32,000 nucleotides of DNA. Origin: Candidatus Saccharimonadota bacterium (lineage in GTDB: Bacteria > Patescibacteriota > Gracilibacteria > BD1-5 > UBA2023). Positions within the stretch are counted from its first letter, which is position 1; the number at the start of each line of letters is the position of its first letter. The notes beneath the pieces are model-generated. The model saw only the letters and a program-made list of their open reading frames with translations. It searched no databases and had not been told where the DNA came from. The stretch is taken from contig OY970170.1 in NCBI GenBank assembly GCA_963706795.1, forward strand, positions 1,235,897-1,267,896, written 5' to 3'. Position numbers and translations under genes: made by a program. This document shows, in pieces, positions 1 to 32,000 of this stretch.

Positions 1-1300
1 CAGTATTACTAAAGGCGATATTTTCTCTCAGTGTCAGACTAAAGACTATACTGTCCTGAAAGACAAACCCAATCTGGTCATAAAATGACTTTTTATCAAA
101 GGAAGTAATATCCTGACCATCAAAGTGGATCGAGCCCGAAGTTGGCGACAAGAGCCCTGTCATGAGATAGAGCAACAGGGTCTTCCCTGCTGCAGTCGGC
201 CCAATGATTGCGGTTTTTGAATGAGGCGCAATAGTAAAAGAAACGTCCTTGAGAGCCTTTTTTTCTCAAAATGCGAGTGTGATATTTTGTACGGCAATTT
301 GTCCGCTGAGATCACTCACAGTCTTGCCTCGAGTTGGAGGAATTGGTGCATTTAAAACCTCAGAGATACGAGCATACGAAGCCGTTGCTTGAGCAATGAC
401 ACCACTCATAAATCCAATAAGAATGATTGGGAAAATTAAAATCGCGAGATATCCATTGAATGCCGCAAAATCTCCGAGACTCATGCTTCCTGTAATGACG
501 AAGTGTCCACCGAGCATGAGGATCGCAAGCATCGCGATATTTGCAGTGAATGTGATCACAGGGATGAGCATCGCAAAGAGTCCCAAAATCATGAGTCCAA
601 TTTCCTTCGCTTTGCTATTTGCCGCGAGGAATTTAACGTATTCGAAGCTTTGTGAATTAAGAAGCCTGATAAGTGCAGATCCGAGAATACTCTCATTAAT
701 GATTTTATTAAGCCAGTCAACGGTTTCTTGTGAAGTCTTAAAGAGCTTGCGCACCTTGCCGAGCACGAATGAAAAAGTTACCCCGATGATTGGCACTGAG
801 AGCAAGACCACAAGCGCTAGCTGCCAATTAATCGCTAGAAGCAAAATGCTCGAACCAATAATCAAAAATACCGAAGAAACAATCGACACAATAGCCTGTG
901 ATACAAAGGTCTTTACAGCATCGACATCAGATGTGAGATTTGTAAGCAGTTTAGAAGGCGTAGCACGCTCGATATATGCGTAGTCCTGTTCTGCAATTTT
1001 TGCGACAATCTGACCACGTAAATCACGCGCTACACGCTCCGAAGCAAAAGTCTGCACAAGACTCTGTCCATAGGTAAGCACAAACACAAAGAATGATATC
1101 GCAGCAAACTCTATAAGAAGCTTGTCGCTATCAAATGTACCACTCGTAAAAGCGTCGATTGCAGACGCAATAATCTTAGGAACTGCAAGATTAAGTCCAT
1201 TCGCCAAAATGGTCAAAACAATAAGCCCTGCAATAATCATGGCATATGGCTTCAAAAGCCCAAAAATATTCGGACTCGGAGCTGGTACTGGTTTCGTCAT
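1..1300 (-). CDS. ABC transporter, fused permease/ATP-binding protein (type-1 exporter, MsbA-like); 3' end runs off the window
   Basis: ATG at 1300. The TM-rich N-terminal half (track ORF 266..1300) continues in frame through TGA at 266-268 into '...ITLAF-G-EKKALKDVSFTIAPHSKTAIIGPTAAGKTTLLLYLMTGLLSPTSGSIHFDGQDI' (Walker A). No TAA/TAG in this frame down to nt 1. Confidence 0.9.
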
Positions 1301-1433
1301 AAAAAGAGGTGCTAACTGATCGGAAAGTATATGACAAAGAGACTAAAAGAAAATCTGGAAATTTTGAGTAAAATAATGGAAATTGGTAGATTCCATCTGT
1401 TTTTCCATACAATACGGTTTTCATGAATCTATA

Positions 1434-2090
1434 ATGACGCGCACTCTCTTGCTCACAAGAATAGGACTCAGCTGTCTTTATGGAATTGTCTTCACAATGC
1501 AAAAGAGCAGTGAATCGAGCAAAATATGAGTGATCAAACAAGGTCTCCCAGCAAAGATTCAAGAAGAATCCAGGGTGCCCACCACAGGCACGGCCGCGCT
1601 CATAATAGAATCTGTACGCAAACAACTCGGAGTGACACTTTACTACGATGGGGCATACGCTAAGCTTGAATACCCGAATGGAGATGTACCCATGATCACC
1701 GGAGTCTGCGCTGATGTCGTCATCCGAGCTCTCCGAAGTGCACTCAAAATAGATCTCCAAAAAGACGTACATCTTGATATGGCTGCAAATTTTAGTCGCT
1801 ATCCACAGGCGTGGTGACTCAAAAAAACTGACACCAATATTGATCACCGCAGAGTCCGCAATCTCATGACCTACTTTGGTCGTCAAAAATGGAATCTAGC
1901 TGATACAGATTTTGCACCAGGCGATATCGTCGCATGGAGGTTGCCGGATGGACAGCGTCATATAGGAATACTCTCAGATACTATCCGCCCCGATGGCAAA
2001 CCACTCGTAATCCATAATATCGGTGGTGGTGCACAAGAGTCTGATATTATTGATTACTACACGAGAATTGGACACTGGAGGATAAAATAA
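1434..2090 (+). CDS. DUF1287 domain-containing secreted protein
   Basis: Track ORFs 1530..1817 and 1866..2090 share a frame and join through TGA 1815-1817, giving 'YPQAW-G-LKKTDTNIDHRRVRNL' (family motif WGL...IDHRRV). A second TGA lies at 1527-1529. ATG 1434 gives a signal-peptide-like N-terminus, MTRTLLLTRIGLSCLYGIVFT. TAA stop at 2088-2090, followed by a hairpin. Confidence 0.85.
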
Positions 2091-2127
2091 AATCTCTAGC
2101 ACATTCCCGTGCTAGAGATTTTATTTT
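2091..2127. terminator. Bidirectional intrinsic terminator between convergent genes
   Basis: Perfect 12-bp stem aatctctagcac (2091-2102) / gtgctagagatt (2109-2120), 6-nt loop, then ttatttt. It lies between the stop of 1434..2090 (+) and the stop of 2126..5356 (-). Confidence 0.8.
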
Positions 2128-5100
2128 ACTTCTGTATATCTTTCCCTTCCTTGATCTTGTCTACTGCAGTTTTGGATGCATCTCAGACAATTGGGGTTCG
2201 AGTTCTGGCTGAGTCTACAAGTTTTTGGTGTGCCTCGAGTTCTTTTGCAGTATTTGCTGCTGCCTTTTCTGAAGCTTTCTGCGCGATTTGCGCTTCGGCT
2301 TCTGCGGCAGTTAAGAGTTGAACTGGATGAAGCTCAGATGGAGCAGCATCAATCACTTGTACTCCATTTCGTACTTCAACGGTACGTTTTACTTTACCAT
2401 TTCAACGTATTTCATCAAATAGGTAGCTTCTGCGACCATTTATAAGTTTACCAGAAGCATCGAATGTTCCGGATTCGACCACCATTCCTGTACCAGTATC
2501 ATCACGTCGTCTTCGGATTCCATCGGTGAGATTGCCATTTACATCAAAATTTCAACGCTCTTGGAGATTGTGATTTACAGTACCGTCGTTATTTTTAGCA
2601 TACCGAGTTCCAGCTTTGCCTGTGAGTCCATTTGGATGAAGCTCACCAATAAAGAGCGTGTGATTATTTTCGTAGCGCTGACTCGTTGTTGCCTCATGTG
2701 GCGAGACATTTGTTGGGGCTGGTGGCACAAAAGGGACTCCGAGGAATTCAGCATGATTCTCGGGAGGACGCGGAGAATTTTCTGGCTCGTATCTCACAAA
2801 TTTTCCGTCCTTTATTGCATAGTGGGCATGTGTTCAGTTTGCATTTCGCATACTCACAAGACCATCCCAGAGGATCCCATAGTTATAATTTCCAGTTTCA
2901 AATCGTTCAAAGGTGGCGGTTCCTGATCTCGATTCACCTTCTAGGAGATTTCCTTCCTTATCAAAACGCCCCTTCTTGTAGCTCTGAGGGTTGACCGTGC
3001 CATCAGCATGTTTGTCATAGAGCGTTCATTCTTTTGGCATTCCATTTTCGTATGTTTTGCCCTCAAAATGAAATCGATCACCGATTTTTGGCTTAGAAGA
3101 AAGTCCTTCGGATTGACGTGCATATGCGTATGGTTCTGGGCCAGTACGTGCGTTTTCTGGAGTAGTATTTCGAGGTTCAGGACGACTCGCACTTGGTGCT
3201 GGTTCAGAATTTGGACGCATTTCTACAACTGCGATTCCTCCGTCAGGAGTGCGCTTTACGCCCATCATTTTATTAACACCACCGGTCGCTGTACGGAAAG
3301 CCGCCGCCATGATGAATGCTTGGGCGATTTGTTCTGGCGAATATGAGAACTTGTCATCAAAGGCAAGTTTAAACGCAAGTTGACTTCCGATGCCGGCAAT
3401 ATTGAGCGCGGCTCCGTCGATAATAGCTCACGTACCAAATCGTACGAGTCCATTGCCCATACGACTCACCCGCCCAAGCATGTTATTTCCAGCAAGCACT
3501 TTAGTTACACCACCCAACACTCAAGCAAAGAGGATCGAATCCCCAAGTCCACGCCATGAGTACATATTTGTATCTTCTTGTGCAGATCTTGCAGCACCGT
3601 GTCCAAGCTCAAAAGCAGCTCATTTTCCGATGAATGTATTGCCTGCTTTCATTCCGTAATTTGCGAGCTTTGCAAAACGCGTAGCCTGAAGACCAGTGGA
3701 AGCGACATTTACAATTGCCGTACCTAGGCCGAGGGTCATCATTCCTGCAGCGAGAGCAACTGATTCAATCCCAGCCATATGCAAGAACTCTCTAAATGAG
3801 CGCGAAGAAGCATTAAATGTACCCGTTCCGAGAATCGAGGACGCCATATCGAGCTCAGAATCTTTTTCGTAGTCTCAATTCCAGTCGACATTTTGATTCA
3901 AAAAGGCTCTCAGATATGCAATGCGGAATGCCTCATCGAGACCCCGCTGCATATGGACTGATTCTGCTTTGTTTAGAAGCTCGCTTTCGGGTTTTGGATC
4001 ATTTGTCTGCGCCTTGTATGCACGAACATATGATGCGCCATTCGCCACCCAATCTTGTTGGAGCGCCTTTTTGACGGACTCCATCTCTTGGCGGATTTCT
4101 TTTGAAGCCTTTGCCTGATCTGCGACATTGAGAGGCTTCGCAAAAGGAATCGTCTCGCCGAGTTCGATCTTGGAGATGAGCGACTCTGCATTGGTGATAT
4201 TCTTTGTATGACTTCGTGCGATCTGTGAAACTACGAGATCATATTGCCCGATACTGTCTTTGATGAGTTTATAGAGTGTAGCGCGTCGCTGTACGGGATT
4301 TTTGTCATTAGAAAATGCTGACATCCAGTGCCAAACAACTCATTTGTCTGGCTCAAGAATATATGTAATTTTCTTGGCAAATTCGTTGATATCACCTCAT
4401 TTTATAACGTATTCGTCCACGAGTTTCCAGGCCTTAAGCGCTTGGGATTGCTTATTTTGGTACTGTGCGCTGTATGCCTCAAGAAAAATCGCCATATCAT
4501 CAGCCCAGCCAATTCGACTTTTTTGCTCTGGAGAAATCTGAGCTTCGGCTCACTGTTTTGCAGCATCTACATAATTTGCATGCCAGATAACTTTTTCGGT
4601 ACCATTCTCACCAATGAGATAATATGCACCATCTCGCACAACCATACCGATTGCAGGAGCACCGAGAACTTTGAGTGCCTCAGACTGTGTAGCTGGCGCG
4701 CTCTTAAGTGGAGCAGCAGGAGCCTTTTTTGGTACTGAAGCCTGAGGTACAGATGGAGTAGCATCTACCTTTGGTGCAGGCTTTGCAAGAACAGCAGGAA
4801 TAGAAACAGGTTTTTGCTCAATTTTTTGAGCATCCTGCGAAGCAGGCTTTGCAACCGAAGTTGGTGTAGGAGCAGGAGTTGGAGCTTTAGGAGTAGCAAC
4901 TACATGGGGAGGAACAGAGGCAACTGGCGCACTCTTTTGCGCTTTTGTTTGATCAACATTAGAAGTCTTAGGTTTTTCTCCGGCCTGCTTTTTGAGGACT
5001 TCAACGAGGCTCCCAAAAGTTTCGGGTCCAGGAATGCCATCTACTCGGATTTCTTCTGCAATCTGAAATTCTTTAATCGCGTGCGTGGTTTCAGTTCCCA

Positions 5101-5356
5101 TCATCCCATCAATTCCATGCTCAGGGAGTTTGTAACCAAGAGTCACCAGCGTCTTTTGGATAATAAGGACCACTGCAGCGCTATCTTTAGGAGAATCTGG
5201 ACGATGAAAAGGCTGATTTTTATACTCAGCGAGCTTTGTAAGCAAAAACTCATTGGTGAAGCCTTGGATAGCTTCTTTTACGTCCTGATCTTTTTCGAGA
5301 TTGAGACCGGTTTTTACCTGCTCTTTGACCCAGTTTGGGCTGTGCTCAATAGACAT
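2126..5356 (-). CDS. Large (1076 aa) envelope-associated protein: N-terminal peptidoglycan-binding-like domain, Pro/Ala-rich linker, Gly-rich hydrophobic segment, C-terminal MORN/YwqK-like repeats
   Basis: Five track ORFs (4550..5356, 3875..4324, 3620..3847, 3026..3310, 2552..2797) are all in one frame. I translated the gaps and they contain only TGA (12 in-frame TGAs by my count). PG_binding_1-like 'LIIQKTLVTLGYKLPEHGIDGMMGTETTHAIKEFQIAEEIRVDGIPGPETF'. Linker 'APTPAPTPTSVAKPA...'. Repeats such as 'FEGKTYENGMPKEGTLYDKHADGTV...YKKGRFDKEGNLLEG'. TAA at 2126-2128; an upstream in-frame TAA lies just 5' of ATG 5356. Confidence 0.8.
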
Positions 5357-5424
5357 AATCGTCGCGAGTTAAGTGTGATACCTTAAAATTACCACACTGT
5401 GCGCTTCTCTGTCAAATAGTGAGC

Positions 5425-6288
5425 CTATGCCTCGTCTATGGATGGTGCGAGCATCTTCGTAGTGACTTGATCATAAAATTTTTGGATGCATCTCACATCC
5501 GAAAATGCTCCAAACTCAGGCATTATAGACCTAATATTTGTCGCGAGCATCGCCTTAAGCATGCGTGCTTCAATGACATATTCTTGGCTAGATATCCCTT
5601 CGATTTTTTCGAGGATGAGATTGGTGTCGGGATCCTCTAAATTATGCTTCGTCAAAATACTCTTTTGATAGAGATGACATATCAAATGTAAGAGCGGAAG
5701 ATCTAGTGGCTCACTAAACTCATCTGGATGAGCCGGAAAATCAAAATTTTGGTCATTATCTGTAATGCGTCCAATAAATAATCACGCTACATGATCTGTC
5801 TTGCCCCATGCCACTTTAAAAGAATTGAGATCAAAAAGATGTATATTTTTTTCATGAAACATGGCTCGCTTACTGGTGATCTGTTCAGATTTAAAAATCT
5901 GAGCATTTACCTCGAGCGATGCAAGCGCTCTGAGCATGTATGCCTCTTTGTCTTGTTGAGCAATTTTTTGATTGGGGTGAACCGCAGTAAATTCGATAAA
6001 TTCGTCTACGAATAGCTCGTCAACATACAGCGTACCAATACCCACCTTGAGTAGAGAATTTCCTCGAATATTCGGCCCCTGATTGATAATCGCTATTTCC
6101 TTGCGATCCGTAAGTCTTTCAAAGAATCGAACAGCCAGGTCATCGTCTTCTTCAAAACGATCATAGAATATTTTTGTGCCAGGAAATTCGAGCACAGCAT
6201 GCACCTCTGATGCTACATCAGTAGAAGGCATAACAGGTGAATCCGTCTGAGTCCGACGAGCTGTCGGGAAAGTGAGAATATTATCCAT
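5425..6288 (-). CDS. Hypothetical protein (287 aa)
   Basis: Track ORFs 5782..6288 and 5425..5685 are in frame and joined through TGA 5782-5784. ATG at 6288, TAG at 5425-5427. No family recognised. Confidence 0.6.
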
Positions 6289-6312
6289 AACAAGGAGGTT
6301 TATGGTGCGATA

Positions 6313-7011
6313 TTATTTTGCGAGCCTAAGTGAACCGAGCGATGACATCGTTCCGATCTCGGCTCAGGTAGATTGTGTATCAAAGTGGATATATTCGTCT
6401 CCCCATGCCGTGAGCAAGCGGTCCATTTGAAAGTCGTCGTATTCATCGAGTGAAAGCCCTCGCAGCCTCTCTGTGAGCTGAACTGGATCTTTTGTAATCG
6501 ACAATGCCCAATAAAATTGACCATCATCTTCACCAAGTGGTTCATGAGTCCAATACAGGATTTCAGAAGCATTTTCACCATCAAATGACCGACCTAAAAG
6601 ATTGAGCAAATGATCTCTTTTTTCGATGCCCGTTCCAGGAATCGCATCAATCAGGATGATCCATGCTTCAGCTGAAACCAAATCCATACTGGGTGGTCGA
6701 TCAGCGACAACATATCCGCGTTTAAATACAAGATCCGTGCCATTTATAGCATCCATTTGTTCAAGAGAATGCGCGCTGATATCTGTGAGATCGATACGAT
6801 ATTGCCCGACAATAATCGCTTGGTTATCAACCTGAATATCAACTTTTCAATATACTTCAGCCCAATTTTGTAAAAGCTGCAATATTCGCTGAGACTGAGT
6901 CTCTGGCATTGCCAGAATATTTTCTGTTTGAGCTCATGCGGCAGGCAGATTCATGGGTATCTGCACTCATTCTGAAGTAGGACGTACCGTCTCAAAAGCA
7001 AGATTATTCAT
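6313..7011 (-). CDS. Hypothetical acidic protein (232 aa)
   Basis: Track ORF 6364..6756 extends upstream to ATG 7009-7011 (TGAs at 6847, 6934, 6967) and downstream through TGA 6364-6366 to TAA 6313-6315. No family recognised. Confidence 0.55.
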
Positions 7012-7109
7012 AACAAAAAATGATGAATTCTGATCACTATAGGAATACTAGCAAATAATCAAGAGAAGAGTTTGTCAAATCACCTACTTGCACCACGGAC
7101 AACTTTATA

Positions 7110-7136
7110 AAAATCCCCGACTATGTCGGGGATTTT
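7110..7136. terminator. Intrinsic terminator hairpin (A-tract/T-tract flanked, potentially bidirectional)
   Basis: aaaatccccgac (7110-7121), tat loop, gtcggggatttt (7125-7136): a perfect 12-bp stem. It starts 16 nt downstream of the TGA that closes ORF 7152..7562 on the minus strand. Confidence 0.75.
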
Positions 7137-7151
7137 GTGATGACGAATGGA

Positions 7152-7562
7152 TCAGAGAGAGAAAATTTTCTCAAGCCAGTGCGTCTCTTCCTTATCTTTC
7201 CCCTTGCAATAGGGGCCGTGGATTGTCTTGTAACAACCACCTGAATTTACCTTACGGTTCATGGTGGTGAGTATCCAATCTACGAAGACTATGCCAAGTT
7301 CGGTATCAACAGATTTGACGATCCCAATGGCACGAATACGTATATCAGAACTTCCTTGACCTAGACCCTTTTTGATCGCAATGCAATCATTTTTACGCAC
7401 TTGTGCAATGACTGAATCATACTCAGGATGTTCCCCAAGTTTCCAGCCATTTTGCCAGATACCTGCTTGAATAAAACGTTCGAATTGATCGTCTTTGCCC
7501 CACATTGCGCCAGCTAAAAAGTACTGACGACTTGGTTTGCTATTTGTTTTAGCTAATTCCAT
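7152..7562 (-). CDS. Hypothetical protein (136 aa) whose only plausible end is a TGA codon
   Basis: Clean ORF 'MELAKTNSKPSRQYFLAGAMWGKDDQFERFIQAGIWQNGW...' with no internal TGA. It ends at TGA 7152-7154, followed by the 7110-7136 terminator. Reading TGA as Gly would add about 135 aa antisense to gene 6313..7011 (next TAA at 6744-6746). Confidence 0.55.
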   Translation of the reverse strand: MELAKTNSKPSRQYFLAGAMWGKDDQFERFIQAGIWQNGWKLGEHPEYDSVIAQVRKNDCIAIKKGLGQGSSDIRIRAIGIVKSVDTELGIVFVDWILTTMNRKVNSGGCYKTIHGPYCKGKDKEETHWLEKIFSL

Positions 7563-7665
7563 TTTACTTCCTTAAGTAGACCCTCCGAGGAAACTCATCG
7601 GGTAAAATAATATCTATTGGTATTTCATCCCCACAAAGTTCATAAGGACCAAAAGAGTCTACGAA

Positions 7666-7701: not shown

Positions 7702-8227
7702 AGGAGAGATTTTTGAGTTTTATTGTGTGGCTAATAAGTTCAAATCCGTTCTCAACAGATGTGATTTCTAAAGTCTTTGATTGAAGGCTAGAAGTAGCTA
7801 TATTTTCCAGAATTCTTGGTAATTGTCGCTTCTTCCAAGTCAGTGTGCGTATCAAAAAACCAATATTGATCGAATTTGCTCCGTGGATATTTAGGTCCTG
7901 TTTATTGCGTTTTTGCTTGAAAAACAAACTCTTCATAGACCTCTTTAAGATGCGGAGAATATTGCCAAGTGGAGATGTATTAATAATCACTATCAAATCC
8001 ACTCGATCTTTCATAGATTTAATGATCGAGCAACTTGCTCATTCAATAATCCAGCTTGATTGCTGTATAGCTTCTTTTTGAAGTAATCAATAATTTGGAT
8101 TCTCAATCCAACCTTCTTGCCATTGGAGCGAATCAAGATGCACAACAGGAATGTTATATGTTTGACTCAGATCGTGTGCAAGCGTAGATTTCCCTGATCA
8201 GGCTGGGCCAGTAATGTATATGCGCAT
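7700..8227 (-). CDS. P-loop NTPase, adenylate-kinase / topology-modulation (FlaR)-like
   Basis: Track ORF 7700..8014 extends upstream through TGAs (8039, 8087, 8198) to ATG 8225-8227: 'MRIYITGPAG-S-GKSTLAHDLSQTYNIPVVHLDSLQW'. TGA 8198-8200 supplies a Walker A glycine (GPAGSGKST). TAA at 7700-7702. Confidence 0.75.
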
Positions 8228-9810: not shown

Positions 9811-9908
9811 ACCTTGTATTTTTCTGTATGGAACGCGAGTTGCATTACAAAAAAAGCGTTCGTTAAAATCTGTAAGTTCGAGGAGTTTTCATTCCTAGGG
9901 AGGAAATT

Positions 9909-10328: not shown

Positions 10329-10354
10329 ATGAACTTACAGAAAGGAGAAATCAA

Positions 10355-10384
10355 AAACAGAAGGTGAAAACCTTCTGTTTTTTT
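10355..10384. terminator. Bidirectional intrinsic terminator
   Basis: aaacagaagg (10355-10364), tgaaaa loop, ccttctgttt (10371-10380), then tttt. It lies between convergent genes 9909..10328 (+) and 10400..10912 (-). Confidence 0.8.
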
Positions 10385-10399
10385 GTGATACGATATTGC

Positions 10400-20744: not shown

Positions 20745-20748
20745 AGAC

Positions 20749-21300: not shown

Positions 21301-21311
21301 ATTTTAGAAGA

Positions 21312-22190
21312 TTATCATGTAAATTTTGATCAAAATATTTCCCTCCATTTTTGATTAGCAGAATATTCCTTTGCCTCCGATTCATACTGCATAGCCTCTA
21401 TCGCTAAGTTATATGCCAATTTTGCCTTGTACTCAAACTTTCATCCCCTCCATACGTACTGACCACTTCAAGGTGCAAGCCAGTAAGATTTATCCTCATC
21501 CTGTTCTTTAAGGAATTTAAAGAAATCCCTTACCATCCAATCATAATACAAATAAGATTTATCCTTTTGCGCCCAATTCTTCATAAAATGATAGCATAAT
21601 GTATCAATCAAAAGCCCTCACATTGGTACATTCCAATAATCTTTCCATACCCTAGTAATTCTGCATAGTCTTTTTAAATTAAAATTCCAGTCTTCATTCT
21701 TCTCCCTAATTTCCTTAATCTCAGGTTTTGGATTTGTCTTCTTCCAAGAACCTCAATCGTTTGAATCAGGAAAAGTATAACTATCGTCAGTTTTAATAAA
21801 GGCAGGTACTATTTCAAAACAGATTCAATCATTCCAGTTGATTCAAATAACTTGTCCATCCCCTTTTATATGTGTTGTAGGATATGTTTTCTGTAATGAT
21901 GATCTAATTGCTTGCAACAATGCAGACTGTCAGTTTCCAGTATAATTGTTATACGTTTCATACAGTGAATCTGGAAGTTGAAAAATTACATCAATGTCAC
22001 TTACATGTATGTCTGTATCTCTACCATAAGATCATACGTATAGACTATGGCTATATTCTGATTCTGTGGACCAAAAATCTTTATTTAATCTCTTTGTGAT
22101 AGATCTATAGCGTACTGAAATCGTATCTATATTATCAATATCGATACGAATATTATCGCAGAAATTTTCAAATTTAGTTGTAATAGACAT
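21312..22190 (-). CDS. SMODS / CD-NTase-like nucleotidyltransferase (292 aa)
   Basis: This is the only frame free of TAA/TAG across 21315..22193; I enumerated every tta/cta. 10 in-frame TGAs, so the track shows no ORF here. Pol-beta NTase core 'YVGSYGRDTDIHVSDIDVIFQLP', 'GICFEIVPAF', 'PDSNDGGSWKKTNPKPEIKEI', 'RLCRITRVWK'. ATG 22188-22190, TAA 21312-21314. Confidence 0.75.
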
Positions 22191-22203
22191 AGATTAACAA
22201 GAA

Positions 22204-23436
22204 CTAAATTAAAGATGGTAAAATTTCTCCGCTCATCAACCTTGGCAATAGCTCATCGCGAGTTCTCGAGAGCAATGCTACTTGAGCTAAGTTATTATAG
22301 ATTTTTCGAAAAATTGGCTTAACTTTCTCATCAAATCCCCTTACTCTCTCAATATTTGGAACAAGCACCTCAAGTTCTTTTATCATGGTCGAATTAATCG
22401 CTGTGACTATCGATGAAGTACTTCATAGTGAGTTGAAATCCAGTTTCTGAAGATAGCAATATATAAATTCGGTACTCAATGCAGAGTTGCCCTTGATTTT
22501 CAGGTGAGCAATTGCTTCATTTGAGAGCATCTCTTCGGTGGTAATCGTTAGTTTACCGACAGTCATTTTGAAACTCAATATCGTTGTATTGATAGGAATT
22601 ACTGAGATATTGAATTTCTTAATTGCCTCATCTATCAGATATTCTGAAGTTTCAAAAATATATGTTTTACTATTTCCGATATCCTTTATAGAAATCCACT
22701 TTTTCCCTGTTGGAGATTTTGAAAACCACTCCGGTTGAATACGAGGAGGAGTTCTTCAGATTGTAATATCAAACTCCGTCCCTAATTTTCCTACTCTCCA
22801 ACCCTCCGGCAACTCATCATCTACGCCATACTTCCCAAATAACTCCTGAAAAATTGTCTGCGCAGTTTTCTCAAGTGTCTCATTTTGCTCTCGAAGAAGT
22901 TCGATCTTATCATCGAAACTTGAAAGTATTTGAGCGATTGCTTGTTGTTCAGGGAGAGAAGGAAGAAGAATAGGATATTCAGTAATTTGTCTCTGGCTTA
23001 TATGCGGGATAGATGTTCCAGTATGAACCTTTGCTACATAGGATTCAAAATTCTTATTTAGAATGAGATGTGCTATGAAATGCTGATCTGAGATTCATGG
23101 TTTCCTTCTTAAACATGCTACTCGCTGAGCCAATATTAGTGGCAGTTCTTTTTCTTGAACCATAGACCTATTTTTTCCAACCTTTGATCCATCCATTCAA
23201 ATTACTATGTCATCTTTTTGTAAGAAACACTTTTCCAATCCATCCGTAGAATGATTCCAATACTTCACAATATCCCATCTAAGAAATCATTCCGAGACAT
23301 TTTCTCATCTTACGACTCTCAAATTTCAATTCGAATCATATAAATTTCACTTGAATGATTCTCACGTAAAAATATCCACAACCTTCCCCAAAGTCGTCTC
23401 CATCCACCCTTCAGGAATCATTTTTTCATTTCTCAT
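22204..23436 (-). CDS. hsdS: Type I restriction enzyme, S (specificity) subunit (410 aa)
   Basis: The frame is open from 23496 to TAG 22204, with 9 in-frame TGAs. 'IPEGWMETTLGKVVDIFTG', 'LAQRVACLRRK', 'HTGTSIPHISQRQI', central 'LPEQQAIAQILSSFDDKIELLREQNETLEKTAQTIFQELF', second TRD 'LPEGWRVGKLG...', C-terminal 'RTRDELLPRLMSGEI'. Confidence 0.9.
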
Positions 23437-23437
23437 A

Positions 23438-23908
23438 CTACTTTTGAGGATTACTCATTTGATTAAGTACGCTATCCACCGCCTTTCATGGTAAGTTTAT
23501 ATCTCCTGTGTTAGTTCATGGAGTGTTTACTTTCTCAGCAATGTTCTCATAATCTGGCGTAACTTTATAATTTCCTCGATTACTCCTATAAAGCTTCCAA
23601 TTCTGTGCCCATTCAATCGCAGTATCTCGGAAACTTTTGTCTATCTTACCGTAATTTACAAGTGTCTCTGAGCCTCAAAATCAGATAGTCATAAATGTTA
23701 CGAGATAGGCCACAGTAATCACCCCGACTTTGTTCTTAAACCATTCAACTTTTGTAGTCAGAAGATATGTCAGAAAAACGAGCAAACAAGCGATTCCGAT
23801 TGCTATAAGCCAGAAGATGATCGTGAATACCGCATAAATAATCACCGCGAGGATTACAATTCCTATCACTCATTGTTCTACGAATCTTTCTTTTCATTTT
23901 CGACCCAT
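23438..23908 (-). CDS. Small membrane protein (156 aa; 2 N-terminal TM helices plus soluble tail), unknown function
   Basis: Track ORF 23681..23869 extends to ATG 23906-23908 and through TGAs (23681, 23675, 23516, 23486) to TAG 23438-23440, 1 nt before the hsdS ATG. Confidence 0.55.
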
Positions 23909-23952
23909 ACTACTTTTGGTTATCAGACAAAGGTTTATGCACTTCAAATAAT

Positions 23953-25089
23953 TTATTTCTCCAGGATATCAAAATAAGACCTAAATACGAAGAGTCGATT
24001 TCTTTTGTTGCCAGTGATTTCCACAAGTATGCCAAGCTTCACAAAATCTTGTATGAGATCGTTTGTCGCTTTTGGGGAGAGATCTGTAATCAATTGCACG
24101 TTTCGCGAAGATACGATGGGCTTCTCGAAAAGTTTCTCAAGCAAGGTATGTGCGCTTTGCATCTTCCTTCCAAGAGTGGGAAGTGAATTTTTGGTATGAT
24201 AGTCTTTCAGATCTAGGACTGCCTTGAGCGAAAGCGTTGCTTCATTTGCAGTTTGTTCCACTCACTCAAGGAAGAAAAGCACCCAAGAGAGAAGATCGTT
24301 TTTCTCTCTAACCCAGGTGAGCTTGTCGTAGTAGAGGGATTTGTTCTTTTCGAAGAAATCAGATACATACAAGAGTGGTCTATGGAGTATACCGTTACTT
24401 ACTAGATAGAGCGGTATCATGAGTCTCCCAGTTCTGCCGTTCCCATCGAGAAATGGGTGTATAGTCTCGAACTGATAGTGAGCTATGGCAATCTTTATGA
24501 GATGAGGAAGTCACACGGCGTCATTATGGAGGAATTTCTCTAGATCAGACATGAGATCACTTACGTGTTCTTGACTCGGGGGTATAAATTTTGCATCAGA
24601 CAGACCCGCACCGCCAATCCAATTTTGACTCGTTCTGAATTCTCAGGGACTCTTATCCCTTCCTCGCACATGAGAGAGAAGGATCTTGTGGATTGATTTA
24701 ATCAAGCGGTTTGAGAGTGGGATATTCTCAAGTTCTTCGATAGCAAAATTGAGAGATTCACGATATTGAATAGTTTCCCTCCAGTCATCCCGTTTTTCTG
24801 GTTGGATATCTCATTCATCAGAAAAAGCCTCTTCAATATTGGTTTTTGTTCCCTCTATTCGGCTTGATGTGACCGCTTCCTTCATGACATATGATTGAAG
24901 GAAAAGTTCGATATTTGGGACAAATTTTGAAAAGGAATTGAGCTCACCAAGCTTAAATGATGCGGATTCAAGTTTCTTCTGAAGAAGAGGATGTGAAAAA
25001 GTCCATTCATGATTTATGGTTTCAGGAAGGAAGTACTTATACTGATAAGCATTTCTCCAAACTCCAGATGTAAAGGTCTCGATCTGCAT
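23953..25089 (-). CDS. Fic/DOC family protein (378 aa)
   Basis: Track ORFs 24811..25089 and 23953..24261 are in frame. The translated gap contains the Fic motif '[12 protein letters not shown]', preceded by '[14 protein letters not shown]'. N-terminal Fic_N-like 'SSRIEGTKT', wHTH-like C-terminus. 4 in-frame TGAs. TAA 23953-23955. Confidence 0.9.
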
Positions 25090-25175
25090 AGAAGTAAATT
25101 ATATATTTCTATAATTTAGTTTATCAGTTAAAAGTAAAATTACAATATCCATATTTTACTTTTGAACGTTATCCA

Positions 25176-26690
25176 CTAAAGCTCAAATCCTATCTTCGCA
25201 AGCTGTCTTTTGATCTCTTCATCGAGTTCTTTCTCTCGTGCCATCTGCTCACCGAGCTTAGTGGTGAGTTCTTTCATCTTTACTTCAAATGGAATCCCAT
25301 CGTCAACTGCGTCTACAATCCCAACATATCGACCTGGAGTAAGTACAAATCCATGTTTCTCGATGTCAGCGAGGCTTGCAGACTTACAATATCCTTTCTG
25401 ATCTTCGTAGGTATTCCCTTTTCTCCAGTTGTGATACGTTTCAGCGATCTTATTCATATGATCTTCGGAGAGATCTCTATGAACACGATCCTTCATATAT
25501 CCCATCTCAGAAGCATCGATGAAAAGCGTTTCACCTTTGCGCTCTGTTCTCTCACGTCGGAGAAACCAGATACAGGCTGGGATACCAGTATTGTAGAAAA
25601 GTTGTTTTGGAAGCGCGACGATACAGTCTACGAGGTCTGCAAGGACGAGCTTTTTGCGGATTTCTCCTTCTCCACTTGTATTAGATGAGAGTGAACCGTT
25701 AGCAAGAACGGTCGCCATGACTCCATGAGGCGCAAGGTGGTAAAGCATATGTTGAATCCATCCGAAATTCGCATTCCCTGAGGGTGGAACTCCGTATTTC
25801 CAGCGCGCATCGTCTTGGAGGATATCGACTCCCCACTCTGATTGATTGAAGGGCGGATTTGCGATGATAAAGTCAGCCTTGAGATCAGGATGCTCATCAC
25901 GAAGAAAAGAGCCCTCTGTATTCCAACGCACAAACTGCGAGTTGATATTACGGATTGCTAGATTCATCTTTGAGAGTTTCCAGGTTGTTTGGTTACTCTC
26001 TTGGCCGTAGATAGTGATATCTTTGATATTTCCCTGGTGTTCTTTGATGAATTTCTCACTCATTATGAACATACCACCGGAACCACAGGCTGGGTCGTAA
26101 ACACGTCCTTTGTATGGCTCGATCATCTCGACCATGAGTTTAACAATGGCTTTTGGCGTGTAAAACTGACCACCCTTTTTTCCTTCGGCATTTGCGAATT
26201 CACCGAGGAAATATTCATAAACTCGACCGAGGAGGTCTTTTGTATTGGCATTTGCAGCCTTGAGTTCGATGTCAGAGATTACGTCGATAAGTTCACCTAG
26301 AGAGGTTTTGTCGAGATTGGGCTTACCGTAGACTTTGGATAGTACATTGCGAAGCTCCGAGTTCTCTTTCTCTATGGACTCCATCGCATCGTCGAGATCC
26401 ACTCCAATCGTTGGAAGTTTTGCTCGTGCATGGAGTGTTTTCCAACGAGCATTTTCTGGCACGAAGAATACATTTTTTGCCTTGTACTCATCACGGTCCT
26501 CTGGATCAGAAAATTCATCTGCCTCAAGTTCGTCGTAGAGCTCTTGAAAACTATCAGAAATATACTTGAGGAAGACAAGTCCAAGAACGACGTTTTTGTA
26601 TTCTGCTGCGTCGATGTTTTTACGAAGCTTGTCAGCAGTCTTGAAGAGTTGTGCTTCGAAATTATTATTGGCTTGATTCTGCGCTGCCAT
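25176..26690 (-). CDS. hsdM: Type I restriction enzyme, M (N6-adenine methyltransferase) subunit (504 aa)
   Basis: Intact in the track. 'VVLGLVFLKYISDSF' (HsdM_N), 'GQFYTPKAIVKLMVEMI', 'VYDPACGSGGMF' (SAM motif I), 'FIIANPPFN' (motif IV NPPF). TAG stop. No in-frame TGA at all. Confidence 0.95.
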   Translation of the reverse strand: MAAQNQANNNFEAQLFKTADKLRKNIDAAEYKNVVLGLVFLKYISDSFQELYDELEADEFSDPEDRDEYKAKNVFFVPENARWKTLHARAKLPTIGVDLDDAMESIEKENSELRNVLSKVYGKPNLDKTSLGELIDVISDIELKAANANTKDLLGRVYEYFLGEFANAEGKKGGQFYTPKAIVKLMVEMIEPYKGRVYDPACGSGGMFIMSEKFIKEHQGNIKDITIYGQESNQTTWKLSKMNLAIRNINSQFVRWNTEGSFLRDEHPDLKADFIIANPPFNQSEWGVDILQDDARWKYGVPPSGNANFGWIQHMLYHLAPHGVMATVLANGSLSSNTSGEGEIRKKLVLADLVDCIVALPKQLFYNTGIPACIWFLRRERTERKGETLFIDASEMGYMKDRVHRDLSEDHMNKIAETYHNWRKGNTYEDQKGYCKSASLADIEKHGFVLTPGRYVGIVDAVDDGIPFEVKMKELTTKLGEQMAREKELDEEIKRQLAKIGFEL

Positions 26691-26719
26691 GAGGAATGAG
26701 TCAGGAATTTTCTTGAAAT

Positions 26720-26748
26720 TTTACCCAATACTGATGCATTGGGTAAAT
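26720..26748. repeat. 10-bp inverted repeat upstream of hsdM (terminator of the preceding gene or an operator)
   Basis: tttacccaat (26720-26729) / attgggtaaa (26739-26748), 9-nt loop. It lies 30 nt upstream of the hsdM ATG and 58 nt downstream of the stop at 26806. The T-tract is weak. Confidence 0.4.
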
Positions 26749-26805
26749 AACTCGTAAAGTATAGTGTTTTAGAGGAAAAGACAATAAGGATAGCCGTGCT
26801 GAATT

Positions 26806-27456
26806 TTATGGGGTTACAGAATTTAATTCATTTCTTCTTATAAAATAGATATACATCCTAGTTCATAGCATAGTGAGTTCTTGGTGAGTTCTTACTAGTT
26901 CGAATTTTGAGTATTCAGAACTATCAAAGAAAGCTTGTATATCTTCAATAGAATATTTGTCTCTCTGAAAACTTACTTTCTCGGGGTAAATTGCAAAAAC
27001 AACACTCATCTTATAAACAGCATCAGTACTACTAACTTTCTTTAATCCGATTTTGGCATTTAGAACATCAGCTGCATCTTGTCACTTATTGTTTTTCACA
27101 TCCCTTATTGCTCTAAGGGACACGGCTCATTGAGAAAAAAGTTCTCTCAATTTTGATCAGGTACATTTCTTCACATGCACAAATTGACTCGTTTTCTCAA
27201 TAAACAAATCACATATTTCCAAACCATTTAATGTAAGTGATTGGTCATGAGAATCACCAAGATCTAAACAGTGATATCAAGCTTTATGAAGAACTGGATG
27301 ACTAGAATCAACATAGAATGCATCCGACTTATCATGAACAGCATTAAATGCAGCTTCATTATGAGTCCACCTGTATCAACCCACTGTACTATTTATTTTA
27401 TCTATAGTTGATTCCCATGGGTTCAAGAAATCATCCTTCAAGGGGCAATACCTCTT
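26806..27456 (-). CDS. C-terminal fragment of a PD-(D/E)xK-like, TIGR04141/DUF6119-like protein (frameshifted relative to 27402..28763)
   Basis: The frame is open from 27456 to TAA 26806-26808 with no ATG near its top. 'HCLDLGDSHDQSLTLNGLEICDLFIEKTSQFVHVKKCTGSKLRELFSQGAVSLRAI' gives a D...E-x-K nuclease-like core. The 'HVK...LxxLFxQGxxS' signature is one I associate with TIGR04141. 6 in-frame TGAs. Confidence 0.55.
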
Positions 27457-28763
27457 TTAAATAAATTTGAGAACTCCTCTTCTACACAGGTAAATAGATC
27501 GGCATTGGGCTCGTAAAAAGCCTCTCAGTACTTGAAATATCGACCATGGGGATTCTCAAGCAAAATTTCACCCTCAATAAGTTCTTCAAATGTAAGTCGC
27601 ACAGAGTCATCCTTGGATCAATCATTATAACTGATGAGTAACTCAAGATTTTTTATAGAGGTAAGATTCGGGAAATCTCGAAGATTAATTTTAACGGCAT
27701 CATCGATAATGAGATCAATTGAATCGAATTCAATTCAATCACTTTGATCACAGGTATCTCTAATTATCGCGTTATTAAAAACATATTCATTCTCTATCAT
27801 GTTCTCTCGTAATTCTTCAAGAGTCGAAACTGATATACTAAAATCACTCAATCCTTTTTCCAAAACACGCTTATTCAGTTCCACTAGAAGCAATCTATGT
27901 AATGCGGAATCTTCTGGCACTCTCAGCAGTTCCGGTATTTTTAATCAATCAAGCACATTTACATCATACCAATAAATCCGATCGATAATCTCAGTTAGTA
28001 ATTGACGATCAATTTTTTCAATTTTTAGCTGCAAAGACTCAGTTCCTGTAGCACTAAATGCAAGTCTTCTGTATTCTTTTCTAGAACTGTTTCTAGGATT
28101 AAAGTTTGAGTCTTCGTGGAAAAATTTACTGAGATTTACTTTTCAGATGAGCTCTTTTAGTACTCTTGTTGCATTTGTAAAATCTTCTGAAGGCCTATAT
28201 TTTGTTTTTCAATTCGACTTAAAAGTTCTCATTATTTCATCCAACAAGTTACCACTTCCACCAGTTTCTTTTTGAAAACTACGTCGTAAGTCGCCATCTT
28301 CGGATATAAGCTTTTTTGTCATTTCAATTCAGAATCTCTCTTCAAAAATATCTCGTAAGTATTGAAATCCTCTTCCGAAAGAAATCAGGTAGTATTCTCA
28401 CCCAATATGGAATCCACCAATTATCCCCTTATTTATAGTCTTATACTCAGATGAAATTTCCTCAAAATCATCTTCAAGACCTACTAGCTTAAGAAAATTG
28501 AACCAGGACTCCTTTTCGATAATCTCTGTACCTTCATGCTTCATCCAGGCAAATAAACAATACCTAGCACTAGATGACGTATGAAGCTGCAGAGGACGCC
28601 ACTCTTTTACAATCTGTGTACCTCCAGTACTAGCACTTGTATTAGATAGTAATCCAGCATTCTCTAGTTTCCCCTGAACTGTCTTAAACAATTTCTCTTC
28701 GTCCTTTAAGTTACTTTTTACCTTGTAAATCCTAAGCTCACTAATGAATGTTGACTGAGACAT
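27402..28763 (-). CDS. N-terminal fragment (453 codons) of the same TIGR04141-like gene
   Basis: Track ORFs 28398..28763 and 27735..27920 share a frame. There is no TAA/TAG in that frame until TAG 27402-27404. ATG at 28761-28763. The last about 17 codons overlap the open top of the 26806..27456 frame. Confidence 0.55.
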
Positions 28764-28847
28764 AAATGTTTTTTAACGCTAGAAAAACCTCCCATCCACA
28801 CCAACAAAGTGTTTCAAGGAGGTTTCCTTATTTTGAGATTCTTCTAA

Positions 28848-28924
28848 TGGTGGACCGGGAGGGGCTCGAACCCTCGACCTAAAGATTAAGAGTCTTCCGC
28901 TCTAACCAACTGAGCTACCGATCC
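28848..28924 (-). tRNA. tRNA-Lys (anticodon CUU), CCA encoded
   Basis: Minus-strand read: GGATCGG-TA-GCTC-AGTTGGTTA-GAGC-G-GAAGA-CTCTTAA-TCTTT-AGGTC-GAGGG-TTCGAGC-CCCTC-CCGGTCC-A-CCA. 7-bp acceptor stem (one G-U), T-loop TTCGAGC, 7-nt anticodon loop with CTT at positions 34-36. Confidence 0.9.
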
Positions 28925-28997
28925 AAGGTGATGTGCTTGCGACATAGGCTCACAAAGCTCGCGAAATATATCGAAAAAAAGTGCGAAATCAAATCTT

Positions 28998-29717
28998 TTA
29001 TGGAGAAGATTGCTTTCCGCGGAGGAGTGAGAGAATAACGCGGTCAATCTGGTACTTGGTGATAGCGTTAGTGGAGGCGATATCGGTGATGGCTTTGGCG
29101 AGGATATCAAAGAAATCTGGGGGCAATTCTCCTGTGCGACGGCGGGCGGTGTCTTGGAGGGCGAAGAGGAGCTCGAGGGCTTCGTCGCGCTTGAATGTTT
29201 TGGTTGCGTAGTATTCGGCGATGGCGGGCTTGGAGAGGGTGATGAGGCCGAGGGCAAGCTCACGGGTATCAGGGCTGATATCGCGGGCAACATCGGTGAT
29301 CTCGAGGAATTGGACGCGTGAGGCTATGGTTTCGAGGAGGGCTTCGCGGGACTCGAGGGTGAGGAGGATGAGTGTGCGAGCAGGGACATCTTCAAATGTT
29401 TTGAGGAGGGCGTTGGCAGCTTCTTTGCTCATTTCGTCGACTTGGGAGACGATGATTACTTGGTAGGGGCCAGATGAGCGAATAGTTGCTCGGGTGATGA
29501 TTTCACGGACTTCTTCGACTTTGTAGGAGTCTTCGCGTGGGGCAAAAAAGGCGATGTCGGGGTGGGCAATCTCGGGAAGTTCTTCAAAAAATACTCGATG
29601 ATTAAAGAGTACTTGGATGATTTTTTCGGTCTGGGACTCGCTTACGACGATGGGTGCGACAGAGCCACCTGCTGTGAAGCGGTCGAGGACGGATGCGAGA
29701 CTTGGAGAGAGTGACAA
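28998..29717 (-). CDS. holB: DNA polymerase III delta-prime (HolB)-like clamp-loader subunit
   Basis: 'EAANALLKTFEDVPARTLILLTLESREALLETIASRVQFLEI' matches the clamp-loader sensor-1/SRC region. TTG start at 29715-29717 (in-frame TAG just upstream), TAA 28998-29000. Visibly GC-richer than the island; no in-frame TGA. Confidence 0.75.
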   Translation of the reverse strand: MSLSPSLASVLDRFTAGGSVAPIVVSESQTEKIIQVLFNHRVFFEELPEIAHPDIAFFAPREDSYKVEEVREIITRATIRSSGPYQVIIVSQVDEMSKEAANALLKTFEDVPARTLILLTLESREALLETIASRVQFLEITDVARDISPDTRELALGLITLSKPAIAEYYATKTFKRDEALELLFALQDTARRRTGELPPDFFDILAKAITDIASTNAITKYQIDRVILSLLRGKQSSP

Positions 29718-29741
29718 ATTGGGCTTTATTTCGGACTATTT

Positions 29742-30869
29742 GTGCCTATTCTATGGCAAACATCGCCCGTGAAAAGTCTCATTTCTTTGTATATCGAATA
29801 TCAGGCCCAGATTATTGCTCTGTCGGCAGTTTTTTTGGCGCTTATTTTGTGGAGGTTTTCGTTTGTGCGAAGGATTGGATATTTCTTTGCCAACCTTCCA
29901 AACAAGCTTTTGGCATTACTGATGCTGTTAGTGCTCGTGCCGGCAATTGGTGGAGCATTGTATTATATCTTTGCGCTGAATACTGGATCACTTGAAGTGC
30001 AGGTTTCTGGAGGCTCGGATGTGACTATCGGGTTGAAGCGATCTGATGTAAATGCATTTGAGCGGGTCTGTGCGGATATTTGTCGATTTGAGAATATTCC
30101 CGCCGGAAGCTACGATGTTATGTATTCCTGATCTGGCATTGTCGAGACGCGAGAAGTTGCCACCATCAAGCGTGGTGAAAATCTCAGGATTTCATTTGTG
30201 CCCGCCGGTAAAATCGCCCTGGAGCCAACGGATCGAGTCACCGCAACTGGCAGTGTGAGTGATGATGACAACTACGTCTTTGCTGGAGCATTCCGTGGGA
30301 AAAACTACAATATCAAACTCTCCCCTTTTGGTTTTGGAGAAGCGAGTGGCAGCGGACAAAATACGCTCTATGAGGCAAATTGACTCGTTGGATATCTGAC
30401 AGGATCAATTCAATATGGATATTTTGTAACGACTACAGCGGACAAAAATCTCCATGTGCTCGATCTTGTTTCGCTTGCGGTCCATGATTTTGGTTCGCCG
30501 GATGAGAGTGTCGCGCTCAGTATCAAATCGACTGGTAAAAAAGATATGGCTGTGCTCGAGACCAAATCTTGATCTTATCTCGTAAATCTCGGTGATAATA
30601 CGCTCACTCCCCTTGCGCTCTATGATGACCTCGCTCTCAGTGCGCGCGGGACACTCATCGGGCTTGTGCGCGGAGAAAGCGCGACAAAAAGATCGCTCCT
30701 TAATCTCGATACGAGATCATGAGACATCCTCATCGATACAACACGTATAGATAGTAAGCGAGTACTGATGGACGGACTCTCGGCGATTGCGCATATCCAC
30801 ACGATTGGTGGCAAATTTATGGTCGAATATATCGACGGAAGCTGGGCAAATCTTAATGGAATCAATTAA
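29742..30869 (+). CDS. Membrane-anchored protein with beta-rich extracytoplasmic region (375 aa), unknown function
   Basis: Track ORFs 29742..30131 and 30198..30383 are in frame. Reading through TGAs at 30129, 30381, 30570 and 30720 reaches TAA 30867-30869. Two N-terminal TM helices. GTG start at 29742 is uncertain. The stop overlaps the next ATG (TAATG). Confidence 0.6.
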
Positions 30870-31714
30870 TGGCAACCAAAAAAGTCTACTGGAACACGAT
30901 TGCACAAATTGGTGGGAAGATCTCAACGGCGCTCATCTCGATCTTCCTCGTCAAGATCCTGACGAACTATCTCGATCTCGAGGGCTACGGACTCTATTCA
31001 AAGATATATAATTATCTCTCAATCTTTTCGGTAATTGCGGATCTTGGGCTCTATACAGTGACTGTTCGAGAGATTTCAGCCCACAAAGACGATCCCGAAA
31101 AAGTCCGAAATATCGCCGGAAATATCCTCACGCTCCGCACTGGAATGGGACTTGCGATCATCGTGCTTTCACTCGCGATGGGACTCATATTGCCAGGATA
31201 CAACTCAAAAGTCGCACTGATTGGAATTTTGATCGCGGGGATTTTTACACTCTTTGGGCTCGTAAATAGCTCGATCATGTCGATGCTTCAGGCCTATCTT
31301 AAGACGGAGTTTTCATTTATTTCGACTACTGCTGGTAAGGTTGTAAATCTCTTGGGAGTGCTCGCCGTGGTCTTTATGATCTTACCGAGACCCTTCCCTG
31401 CTGTAAACGAATCGATTGCCTTTGCCTTGATCATGGTGGCGGGACTCCTTGGAAATATCGTGATGACTGCGATGGTGTATTGGTATAGTCTGAAGGTCGA
31501 AAAAGTCGGATTTCGATTTGATCCGGTATTTATGAAGTCGATCCTGCGTTCGTCTCTGCCATACGGGCTCGCACTTCGCATCATTAACACCATTTGTTCT
31601 TTCTCATATTCGGTATATTTTCCATGAGCGGCTTTATTTCTTAGATCAAGCCACGCAGTGGCTGACTTTTGATCCAATTTTGTGTATACATATGTGCCAT
31701 CAGTAGCTGATTAA
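30869..31714 (+). CDS. MOP/Wzx-family polysaccharide flippase, apparently 3'-truncated (about 236 of an expected 400+ aa)
   Basis: 'MATKKVYWNTIAQIGGKISTALISIFLVKILTNYL...' with multiple TM helices up to '...ILRSSLPYGLAL'. After about 31577 the sequence loses TM character, crosses TGA 31625 and stops at TAA 31712-31714. Composition also changes there. Confidence 0.6.
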
Positions 31715-31904
31715 ACTCTGAATAATGGGAGTGCTCTTTACCATACACCATAGTTATAAATGACAATACTGACGCCCTTAGCCCAGCTAGCTTACCTGAA
31801 TCAACATAGTCACATGTATATTGGTCTGATCTCTTAGTAGACAGAGCAACTTGGGACTGCTCTACTAACTGCTGAATCCTTGTTGACAATTCTTTTAAGT
31901 GCAT
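31641..31904 (-). CDS. Hypothetical protein (87 aa); probable N-terminal part of a frameshifted HEPN-like gene
   Basis: ATG 31902-31904, TAA 31641-31643. The overlapping frame (open 31710 down to the junction) encodes 'LDQKSATAWLDLRNKAAHGKYTEYEKEQMVLMM', which contains an R-x4-H HEPN-type motif. Confidence 0.4.
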   Translation of the reverse strand: MHLKELSTRIQQLVEQSQVALSTKRSDQYTCDYVDSGKLAGLRASVLSFITMVYGKEHSHYSEFNQLLMAHMYTQNWIKSQPLRGLI

Positions 31905-32000
31905 AATCTTCCTTCCGATACAAAAAGTACAAACTCAACGAAATATAATTACAAACATAAATTAGAAATCAAAAAATTAAGATTGATTAGTTGATTTACC

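Follow-up and report, generated by a model that had tools for sequence, protein, structure and literature searches.

Glycine-encoding TGA codons in a 32-kb genomic stretch from a Gracilibacteria-class bacterium

The stretch of contig OY970170.1 analysed here (positions 1,235,897 to 1,267,896; 32,000 bp with a GC content of 41.7%, hereafter the window) raises the question of what the codon TGA means to the organism that carries it. The original prediction, made from the sequence alone, held that TGA is a glycine codon throughout the window (genetic code 25) and that the organism belongs to a Gracilibacteria/Absconditabacteria-type lineage within the candidate phyla radiation (CPR). We conclude that the window almost certainly derives from a Gracilibacteria-class organism (Patescibacteria/CPR) with a small genome, one that uses NCBI translation table 25, whereby UGA is read as glycine and only TAA and TAG serve as stops.

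Across 24 genes of the window, 114 TGA codons were found in frame, as against no internal TAA or TAG. The gene ends comprise 11 TAA and 11 TAG codons, contributed by 21 complete genes and the 3' part of a split DUF6119 gene. We measured coding coverage as the fraction of the window occupied by the best non-overlapping tiling of open reading frames (ORFs) of at least 100 aa. Coverage was 0.54 with table 11 and 0.95 with TGA as a sense codon, so table 11 does not give an equal or better density; control stop sets in which TAG or TAA was made sense reached 0.59 and 0.70 respectively. Reading TGA as sense hardly shifts the coverage of standard-code outgroup loci (0.78 to 0.83, 0.88 to 0.94, 0.87 to 0.88 and 0.94 to 0.93), and loci of recoded relatives resemble the window, with a change from 0.52 to 0.93 in one example. 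With TGA as sense, the table-11 fragments fuse into full-length genes whose Pfam architectures run through the TGA codons, and the families recovered in this way include DUF1287, NAS, cobW, Fic_N + Fic, Methylase_S, SLATT_4, GNAT and an ABC transporter. In the type I restriction subunit HsdR, the domains HSDR_N, SWI2_SNF2, T1R_D3-like and T1RH-like_C follow in order across seven TGAs (18225, 18291, 18495, 18615, 18687, 19818 and 20295), ResIII overlapping SWI2_SNF2. The SMODS cyclase is matched over Pfam profile positions 1-164 of 164, a span that holds five TGAs. A side effect of treating TGA as sense is that false, overlapping ORFs are inflated, and under code 25 the length of an ORF is therefore not to be trusted by itself. 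Four such ORFs, 6744-7571(-), 9876-11000(+), 13390-13863(-) and the 5' part of 28890-30869(+), were excluded from all codon counts and are probably not genes, being antisense to, or overlapping, better-supported ones.

The six TGAs that the original prediction singled out (20295-20297, 19818-19820, 12446-12448, 8198-8200 and 13126-13128 on the minus strand, 1815-1817 on the plus strand) all lie in the frame of a long ORF. The sequence contexts quoted for five of them were correct, the exception being the nicotianamine-synthase-like gene (NAS), where the sequence reads CSE-TGA-ESLLE and not 'AE-G'. The statement that gene pieces always stay in frame holds generally but fails for DUF6119, which occupies two frames meeting near 27,420. 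Likewise, the claim that two genes have no ORF reaching 60 aa is correct for the coding strand, where the longest table-11 ORFs are 47 aa (13885-14775) and 52 aa (21312-22190, the SMODS gene, in frame); antisense ORFs of 62, 78 and 63 aa in the ORF list do overlap them.

ORF boundaries and coding density are identical under table 25 and table 4, which assigns TGA to tryptophan as in Mycoplasma and some insect endosymbionts, and the two readings were set against each other by family alignment. Eighteen TGAs are informative in the alignments of HsdR, SMODS and DUF1287. Fourteen of these occupy columns with at least 80% glycine, and none falls on a tryptophan column. Conversely, all 14 tryptophan-conserved columns of the three families are TGG in the query and none is TGA. 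The HsdR alignment contained the best 120 homologues, 70-84% identical and including Mariprofundus, a Zetaproteobacterium, Methyloprofundus and Hydrogenimonas. Here, six of the seven TGAs coincide with columns of at least 85% glycine (113, 115, 108, 114, 102 and 109 of 120), the seventh column being variable (N 42, G 33 of 120). The 47 glycine-majority columns of HsdR correspond to GGN at 40 positions, TGA at six and Asp at one, and its five tryptophan-majority columns are TGG without exception. A similar picture is seen for SMODS, where eight of ten TGAs are at columns with at least 85% glycine and the remaining two are at variable columns in which glycine is still the most frequent residue. 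Its 13 glycine-majority columns are split between TGA (eight) and GGN (five), and TGG occurs at all eight tryptophan-majority columns. In DUF1287, the TGA of the 'W-x-L' motif (1815) falls on a column with glycine in 106 of 148 representatives (72%), and TGA 1527 lies within an unaligned N-terminal stretch.

In the cobW protein, 'GPLGS-TGA-KT' aligns with 'GFLGAGKT' of YjiA, placing TGA on the invariant glycine that precedes the lysine. The kinase motif 'GPA-TGA-SGKST' has glycine in ClpX ('GPTGSGKT') and Cys in shikimate kinase ('GFMCSGKST'). Of the positions proposed as invariant glycines, those of the kinase and DUF1287 are glycine-dominant rather than invariant, and the NAS columns are Ala/Gly or Ala/Val.

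When summed over the 18 informative columns, the log-odds for TGA were +67.9 bits for glycine and +5.9 for tryptophan, with Ser next at -52 and Cys at -83 bits. Codon-by-codon inference, run on the three families only, returned TGA as glycine and as the sole codon departing from table 11, the other observed codons being standard. Among these, TGG (n = 20) was assigned to Trp at +107 bits, CGA (n = 19) to Arg at +66 bits, and GGA (n = 22), GGC (n = 7), GGG (n = 21) and GGT (n = 20) to Gly at +71, +17, +80 and +65 bits respectively. We also substituted either glycine or tryptophan at every TGA of ten proteins and scored 13 domains with the curated Pfam models. Glycine scored higher in 12 of 13 domains, with a net gain of about +82 bits. 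The differences amounted to +15.8 bits for SMODS, +16.6 for Methylase_S of HsdS (99.5 with glycine, 82.9 with tryptophan), +10.4 for T1RH-like_C and +7.8 for cobW (82.7 and 74.9), with NAS (+0.1) and Fic_N (-0.6) close to neutral. Acetyltransf_1 of the GNAT protein went from 45.1 bits with tryptophan to 51.1 with glycine, and AAA_18 of the kinase was found at 25.3 bits with glycine and was below threshold with tryptophan.

The small positive tryptophan score, and the fact that some homologues do show W at TGA columns, would at face value favour table 4, as would the rendering of these genes with tryptophan by public pipelines (P0122, P0242). However, these W residues sit on columns that are otherwise conserved as glycine. 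Roughly 30 of the 120 HsdR homologues have them, scattered over different columns in each sequence and numbering up to 24 in one protein; one such alignment member is labelled 'uncultured bacterium (gcode 4)'. This is the pattern expected from table-4 translation of the relatives' own TGA codons, and the positive tryptophan score is an artefact of it. Given the score difference and the uniform use of TGG at tryptophan columns, tryptophan does not fit, as the original prediction had argued; table 4 is refuted at the level of the window, and we consider it extremely unlikely.

Independent sequence from the same and related organisms was located through HsdM, which contains no TGA and is therefore called identically under any code. 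In public data the identical protein is encoded by a 1,267,896-bp contig (NCBI/ENA) and by a Logan contig of 13.5 kb that stems from run ERR12037365. The latter (L001) is an independent assembly, 100% identical to window positions 23772-31575 (7.8 kb), that runs on beyond the matching part into a short PolA gene. This PolA was searched against one genome per GTDB species, the window's own genome not being among them. The top match, at 84% identity, was to a metagenome-assembled genome (MAG) labelled 'Patescibacteria group bacterium' (L002), followed by 'Candidatus Gracilibacteria bacterium' MAGs, about 40 in number and 40-56% identical, some of them labelled Peribacteria. The L002 locus shares with the window and L001 the order tRNA-Lys, HolB, membrane protein, flippase and PolA; this synteny with relatives' chromosomal contigs speaks against an origin from a phage or plasmid. 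Similarity ranking and synteny, rather than a tree, place the organism among Gracilibacteria/Absconditabacteria, in agreement with the lineage first proposed. A codon-level comparison of TGA and GGN with L002 gave 12 codon pairs, several of them from spurious antisense ORFs, and was left unused.

Nearly all of the 57 relatives analysed have TGA within PolA; in total 368 TGAs lie in frame in these genes, as against not one TAA or TAG. On columns at least 80% conserved there are 149 TGA cells, 144 of them at glycine columns and none at tryptophan columns. Glycine makes up 52% of the residues at PolA TGA columns compared with a background of 4.8%, and the single tryptophan column has 57 W and no TGA. 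Six outgroup PolA loci (three Ktedonobacteraceae, a Chloroflexia, an Eubacteriales and one unclassified MAG) are without TGA. These data also bear on a standard code in which the TGAs would be pseudogene lesions, sequencing errors, selenocysteine or occasional programmed readthrough. Some decay does occur in the window, since DUF6119 carries a real frameshift. However, lesions or errors do not account for 114 TGAs without a single in-frame TAA or TAG, for their specificity for glycine positions, for the 100% identity of an assembly from another run over 7.8 kb, or for the same asymmetry in the PolA genes of relatives. Selenocysteine at TGA was rejected on the Cys score of -83 bits and the number of sites (114). 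Stop-codon asymmetry and column identity together refute the standard-code reading, whose probability we put at practically nil.

With glycine identity established from the window itself, the decoding machinery of this genome can be approached through relatives and the literature. A tRNA scan of 54 related loci gave one informative case, a recoded relative (L028) in which, at 2255-2425 on the minus strand, a 79-nt tRNA(UCA) lies 15 nt upstream of a tRNA-Gly(GCC). The tRNA(UCA) has G1:C72, C2:G71, G3:C70 and the discriminator U73, a 5-nt variable loop and an encoded CCA. ARAGORN calls it tRNA-SeC solely from the anticodon; an identity as selenocysteine tRNA was rejected, as neither its 79-nt length nor its 5-nt variable loop is Sec-like. 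These four elements are the set used by Shulgina and Eddy to class the tRNA(UCA) of this clade as a glycine acceptor (PMC8629427). We infer from this relative and the literature that UGA in the present organism would be read by a dedicated tRNA-Gly with anticodon UCA, which would keep the glycyl-tRNA synthetase identity elements G1:C72, C2:G71, G3:C70 and U73, and, from work on the lineage, that release factor 2 (RF2) may have been lost.

If RF2 were retained, or if tandem 'TGA TAA' ends acted as stops, UGA could be dual, mostly glycine yet still terminating in some contexts. Two species of 'Gracilibacteria', among the few without the reassignment, do keep RF2 and are without tRNA(UCA) (Shulgina and Eddy, PMC8629427), and the SMODS gene ends with its last TGA immediately before TAA (21312-21317, minus strand). 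In the final SMODS column, 39 of 120 homologues have glycine and 36 have already terminated, so the final glycine may or may not be functional. However, read through to TAA/TAG, HsdR has 1037 aa (homologues 1013-1069 aa) and SMODS 292 aa (homologues 290-305 aa, mostly 290-294), and termination at TGA is not required for any gene to have its normal length. A TGA density of 12 per 1000 codons is furthermore incompatible with efficient termination at TGA. We hold such a dual role to be very unlikely.

Several observations nevertheless weigh against glycine as the general meaning of TGA. Four of the 18 informative TGAs fall on variable columns. A large-database search returned only three NAS homologues, whose residues at the two TGA columns are G/A/A and A/V/A, and the glycine of the family's 'AEG' motif aligns two residues downstream of the TGA, at a query Ser. 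In the Fic protein, the TGA at aa 149 aligns with the glycine of SoFic 'KVPG', but the other three of its four TGAs align, among few homologues, to Glu, Ala and a gap; the NAS and Fic alignments would thus be compatible with glycine without being proof of it. Several of the best-tested genes (type I restriction-modification (R-M) and CBASS) lie in a horizontally mobile defence island, so this evidence is not independent of transfer within recoded lineages, and the native genes of the window (ABC transporter, flippase, HolB) have few TGAs or none. Finally, tRNA-Lys(CTT) is the only tRNA of the window, and no prfB occurs among the window genes, although 32 kb cannot show a genome-wide absence.

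As a glycine codon UGA is well precedented. Its reassignment in Absconditabacteria and Gracilibacteria is described in PMC8629427, which cites Campbell et al. 2013 and Rinke et al. 2013 for code 25, and Hanke et al. 2014 (PMC4032931), in which metaproteomic peptides spanning TGA positions were used for a BD1-5 bacterium, likewise gives UGA as glycine. The window is like NCBI table 25 (Candidate Division SR1 (Absconditabacteria) and Gracilibacteria) in having UGA as glycine, TAA/TAG stops and otherwise standard tested codons. Further likenesses are a small genome (1.27-Mb contig), Gracilibacteria PolA relatives with TGA at glycine columns, and a relative whose tRNA(UCA) bears glycine identity elements. 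No tested feature differs from the table 25 clades, and the GC content is within their quoted range of 0.21-0.53 (PMC8629427). With the table 4 groups (Mycoplasmatales, Entomoplasmatales and several insect endosymbionts) the window shares the reassigned codon, the ORF structure and a small genome, but unlike in these, its TGAs avoid tryptophan-conserved columns and occupy glycine-conserved ones.

A second reassignment is on record in these clades, CGA and CGG to tryptophan in Absconditabacteria and CGG to tryptophan in some Gracilibacteria (Shulgina and Eddy 2021, PMC8629427). As in those genomes, CGG is rare in the window: it accounts for 16 among 9290 codons and does not occur in HsdR, SMODS or DUF1287. 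In contrast to them, CGA is clearly arginine (13 of the 14 codons on conserved columns, from 19 in all), and the only CGG on a conserved column (aa 103 of NAS, 'ENYR') is matched by Arg in two of three homologues. Neither CGA nor CGG thus shows signs of reassignment to tryptophan, and the alignments support a table-11 meaning for all other testable codons, CGG being judged from one site.

TGA makes up 19.6% of the glycine codons of the window genes, or 12.3 in every 1000 codons. From gene to gene this share declines steeply with increasing GC (Spearman rho -0.82, P = 7e-7): it is 50-60% in SLATT and SMODS and in the C-terminal DUF6119 piece (GC 0.30-0.33), and 0% in hsdM, HolB and the flippase fragment (GC 0.44-0.56). 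The value for hsdM is low even for its own GC, with no TGA among 35 glycine codons (binomial P = 5e-4 against the window mean, uncorrected for 24 genes), compared with 7/53 in hsdR, 9/26 in hsdS and 56% in SMODS. Chance, selection or a recent transfer from a donor with the standard code could each explain this absence.

The annotated genes are listed in Table 1. The two hypothetical proteins at 13885-14775 and 14820-16949 have no Pfam match, and the former is the weakest gene call of the set. The HolB-like gene (DNA_pol3_delta2, 28890-29717, minus strand) contains no TGA and has an unusually high GC of 0.56 over its last 145 codons; the long TGA-sense ORF antisense to it on the plus strand is almost certainly spurious.

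Table 1 Features of the window with their in-frame TGA codons. Positions are those of the window; domain names are from Pfam unless PADLOC is given.
Feature	Position	Strand	In-frame TGA	Remarks
ABC transporter	2..1300	-	1 (266)	3' end cut by window edge; ABC_membrane + ABC_tran
DUF1287 protein, 218 aa	1434..2090	+	2 (1527, 1815)	DUF1287, 198 bits
Large protein with peptidoglycan-binding domain, 1076 aa	2126..5356	-	12	One ORF under TAA/TAG stops; PG_binding_1
Small P-loop kinase-like protein, 175 aa	7700..8227	-	3 (one at 8198, in P-loop)	AAA_18
cobW/COG0523 GTPase, 506 aa	10988..12508	-	4 (12446 in Walker A motif)	cobW
Nicotianamine-synthase-like protein, 272 aa	12514..13332	-	2 (12523, 13126)	NAS
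Hypothetical protein, 296 aa	13885..14775	+	8	TGA-sense ORF
Hypothetical protein, 709 aa	14820..16949	-	8	One ORF under TAA/TAG stops
GNAT acetyltransferase, 156 aa	17134..17604	-	4	Acetyltransf_1
hsdR, type I restriction subunit R, 1037 aa	17631..20744	-	7	Ordered set of five Pfam domains
SLATT_4 two-transmembrane effector, 183 aa	20749..21300	-	4	SLATT_4; PADLOC 2TM effector
SMODS / CBASS oligonucleotide cyclase, 292 aa	21312..22190	-	10	PADLOC Cyclase, 460 bits
hsdS specificity subunit, 410 aa	22204..23436	-	9	Methylase_S
SoFic-type Fic protein, 378 aa	23953..25089	-	4	Fic_N + Fic; PADLOC SoFic, 393 bits
hsdM methylase, 504 aa	25176..26690	-	0	N6_Mtase + HsdM_N
DUF6119 gene	26806..28763	-	16	Two frames, frameshift near 27,420
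Membrane protein, ~423 aa	29598..30869	+	5	Orthologue 56% identical in closest relative (L002)

The defence island (17631-28924) adjoins the tRNA-Lys(CTT) and contains, in order, hsdR, the SLATT effector, the SMODS cyclase, hsdS, a small membrane protein, SoFic, hsdM and the frameshifted DUF6119. The two-transmembrane SLATT effector and the SMODS cyclase form a CBASS type I pair, and both this pair and SoFic lie within the type I R-M operon. In the closest relative, unrelated genes are found on the island side of the tRNA-Lys. HsdR is 70-84% identical to proteins of standard-code Zetaproteobacteria, methanotrophs and Campylobacterota as well as of recoded CPR bacteria. That the island, with its R-M system, CBASS cyclase and effector, SoFic and DUF6119, records gene traffic across the genetic-code boundary is a speculative and rather unlikely proposal. 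If hsdM had only recently arrived from a donor with the standard code, the TGA-rich genes being long-standing residents, TGA content could serve as a clock of residence in a code-25 genome and would also directly quantify the leakiness of the recoding barrier towards the transfer of defence genes.

In DUF6119, the overlapping frames meet near an A-run (TTTAAAAGAGG) at about 27,420. The C-terminal part alone scores 42.8 bits; joining the parts at FSNLFK|RYCPLK raises this to 91 bits, with profile positions 52-523 of 524 matched. The shift is present with the same sequence in the independent assembly L001 and so is not a read error; the frameshift is real, reflecting either a pseudogene or programmed slippage. 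Towards the window edge, the flippase gene (Polysacc_synt) is broken after 31575 by unrelated AT-rich DNA (31576-32000) with a minus-strand ORF of about 88 aa. In L001 it is intact (4284-5834, 517 aa) and followed by PolA. The strain of the window may carry an insertion or island at this point, or else the interruption is a join made in assembly.

That UGA encodes glycine here was already known for the lineage and adds no new principle, the reassignment having been recognised since 2013 and having its own NCBI table. Its consequence lies in how such genomes are annotated. As had been anticipated, standard annotation misses or truncates most genes of the window, and public data hold only table-11 fragments or table-4 tryptophan versions of them. 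An exact-sequence look-up in a collection of 15 billion proteins did not return the glycine translations of SMODS, SLATT, HsdR, NAS or Fic; SMODS and SLATT are present there in all-tryptophan form. NAS is public only as a 171-aa table-11 fragment (P0243) and DUF1287 as fragments of 95 and 74 aa; P0248 and P0265 are further entries in which proteins of the window exist as tryptophan versions or table-11 fragments. The PolA gene on L001 is split by the public calls into a 411-aa piece, which ends at the in-frame TGA, and one of 53 aa. Approximately one quarter of the closest HsdR homologues (P0002-P0121) carry tryptophan at glycine-conserved columns, and thus mistranslated code-25 proteins have already entered reference sets. 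Table 11 leaves 46% of the window outside any ORF of 100 aa or longer and breaks HsdR, HsdS, Fic and cobW into fragments. With table 4, each TGA-encoded glycine turns into tryptophan, those of P-loop and catalytic-core motifs included. The choice of code decides whether the region can be annotated at all.

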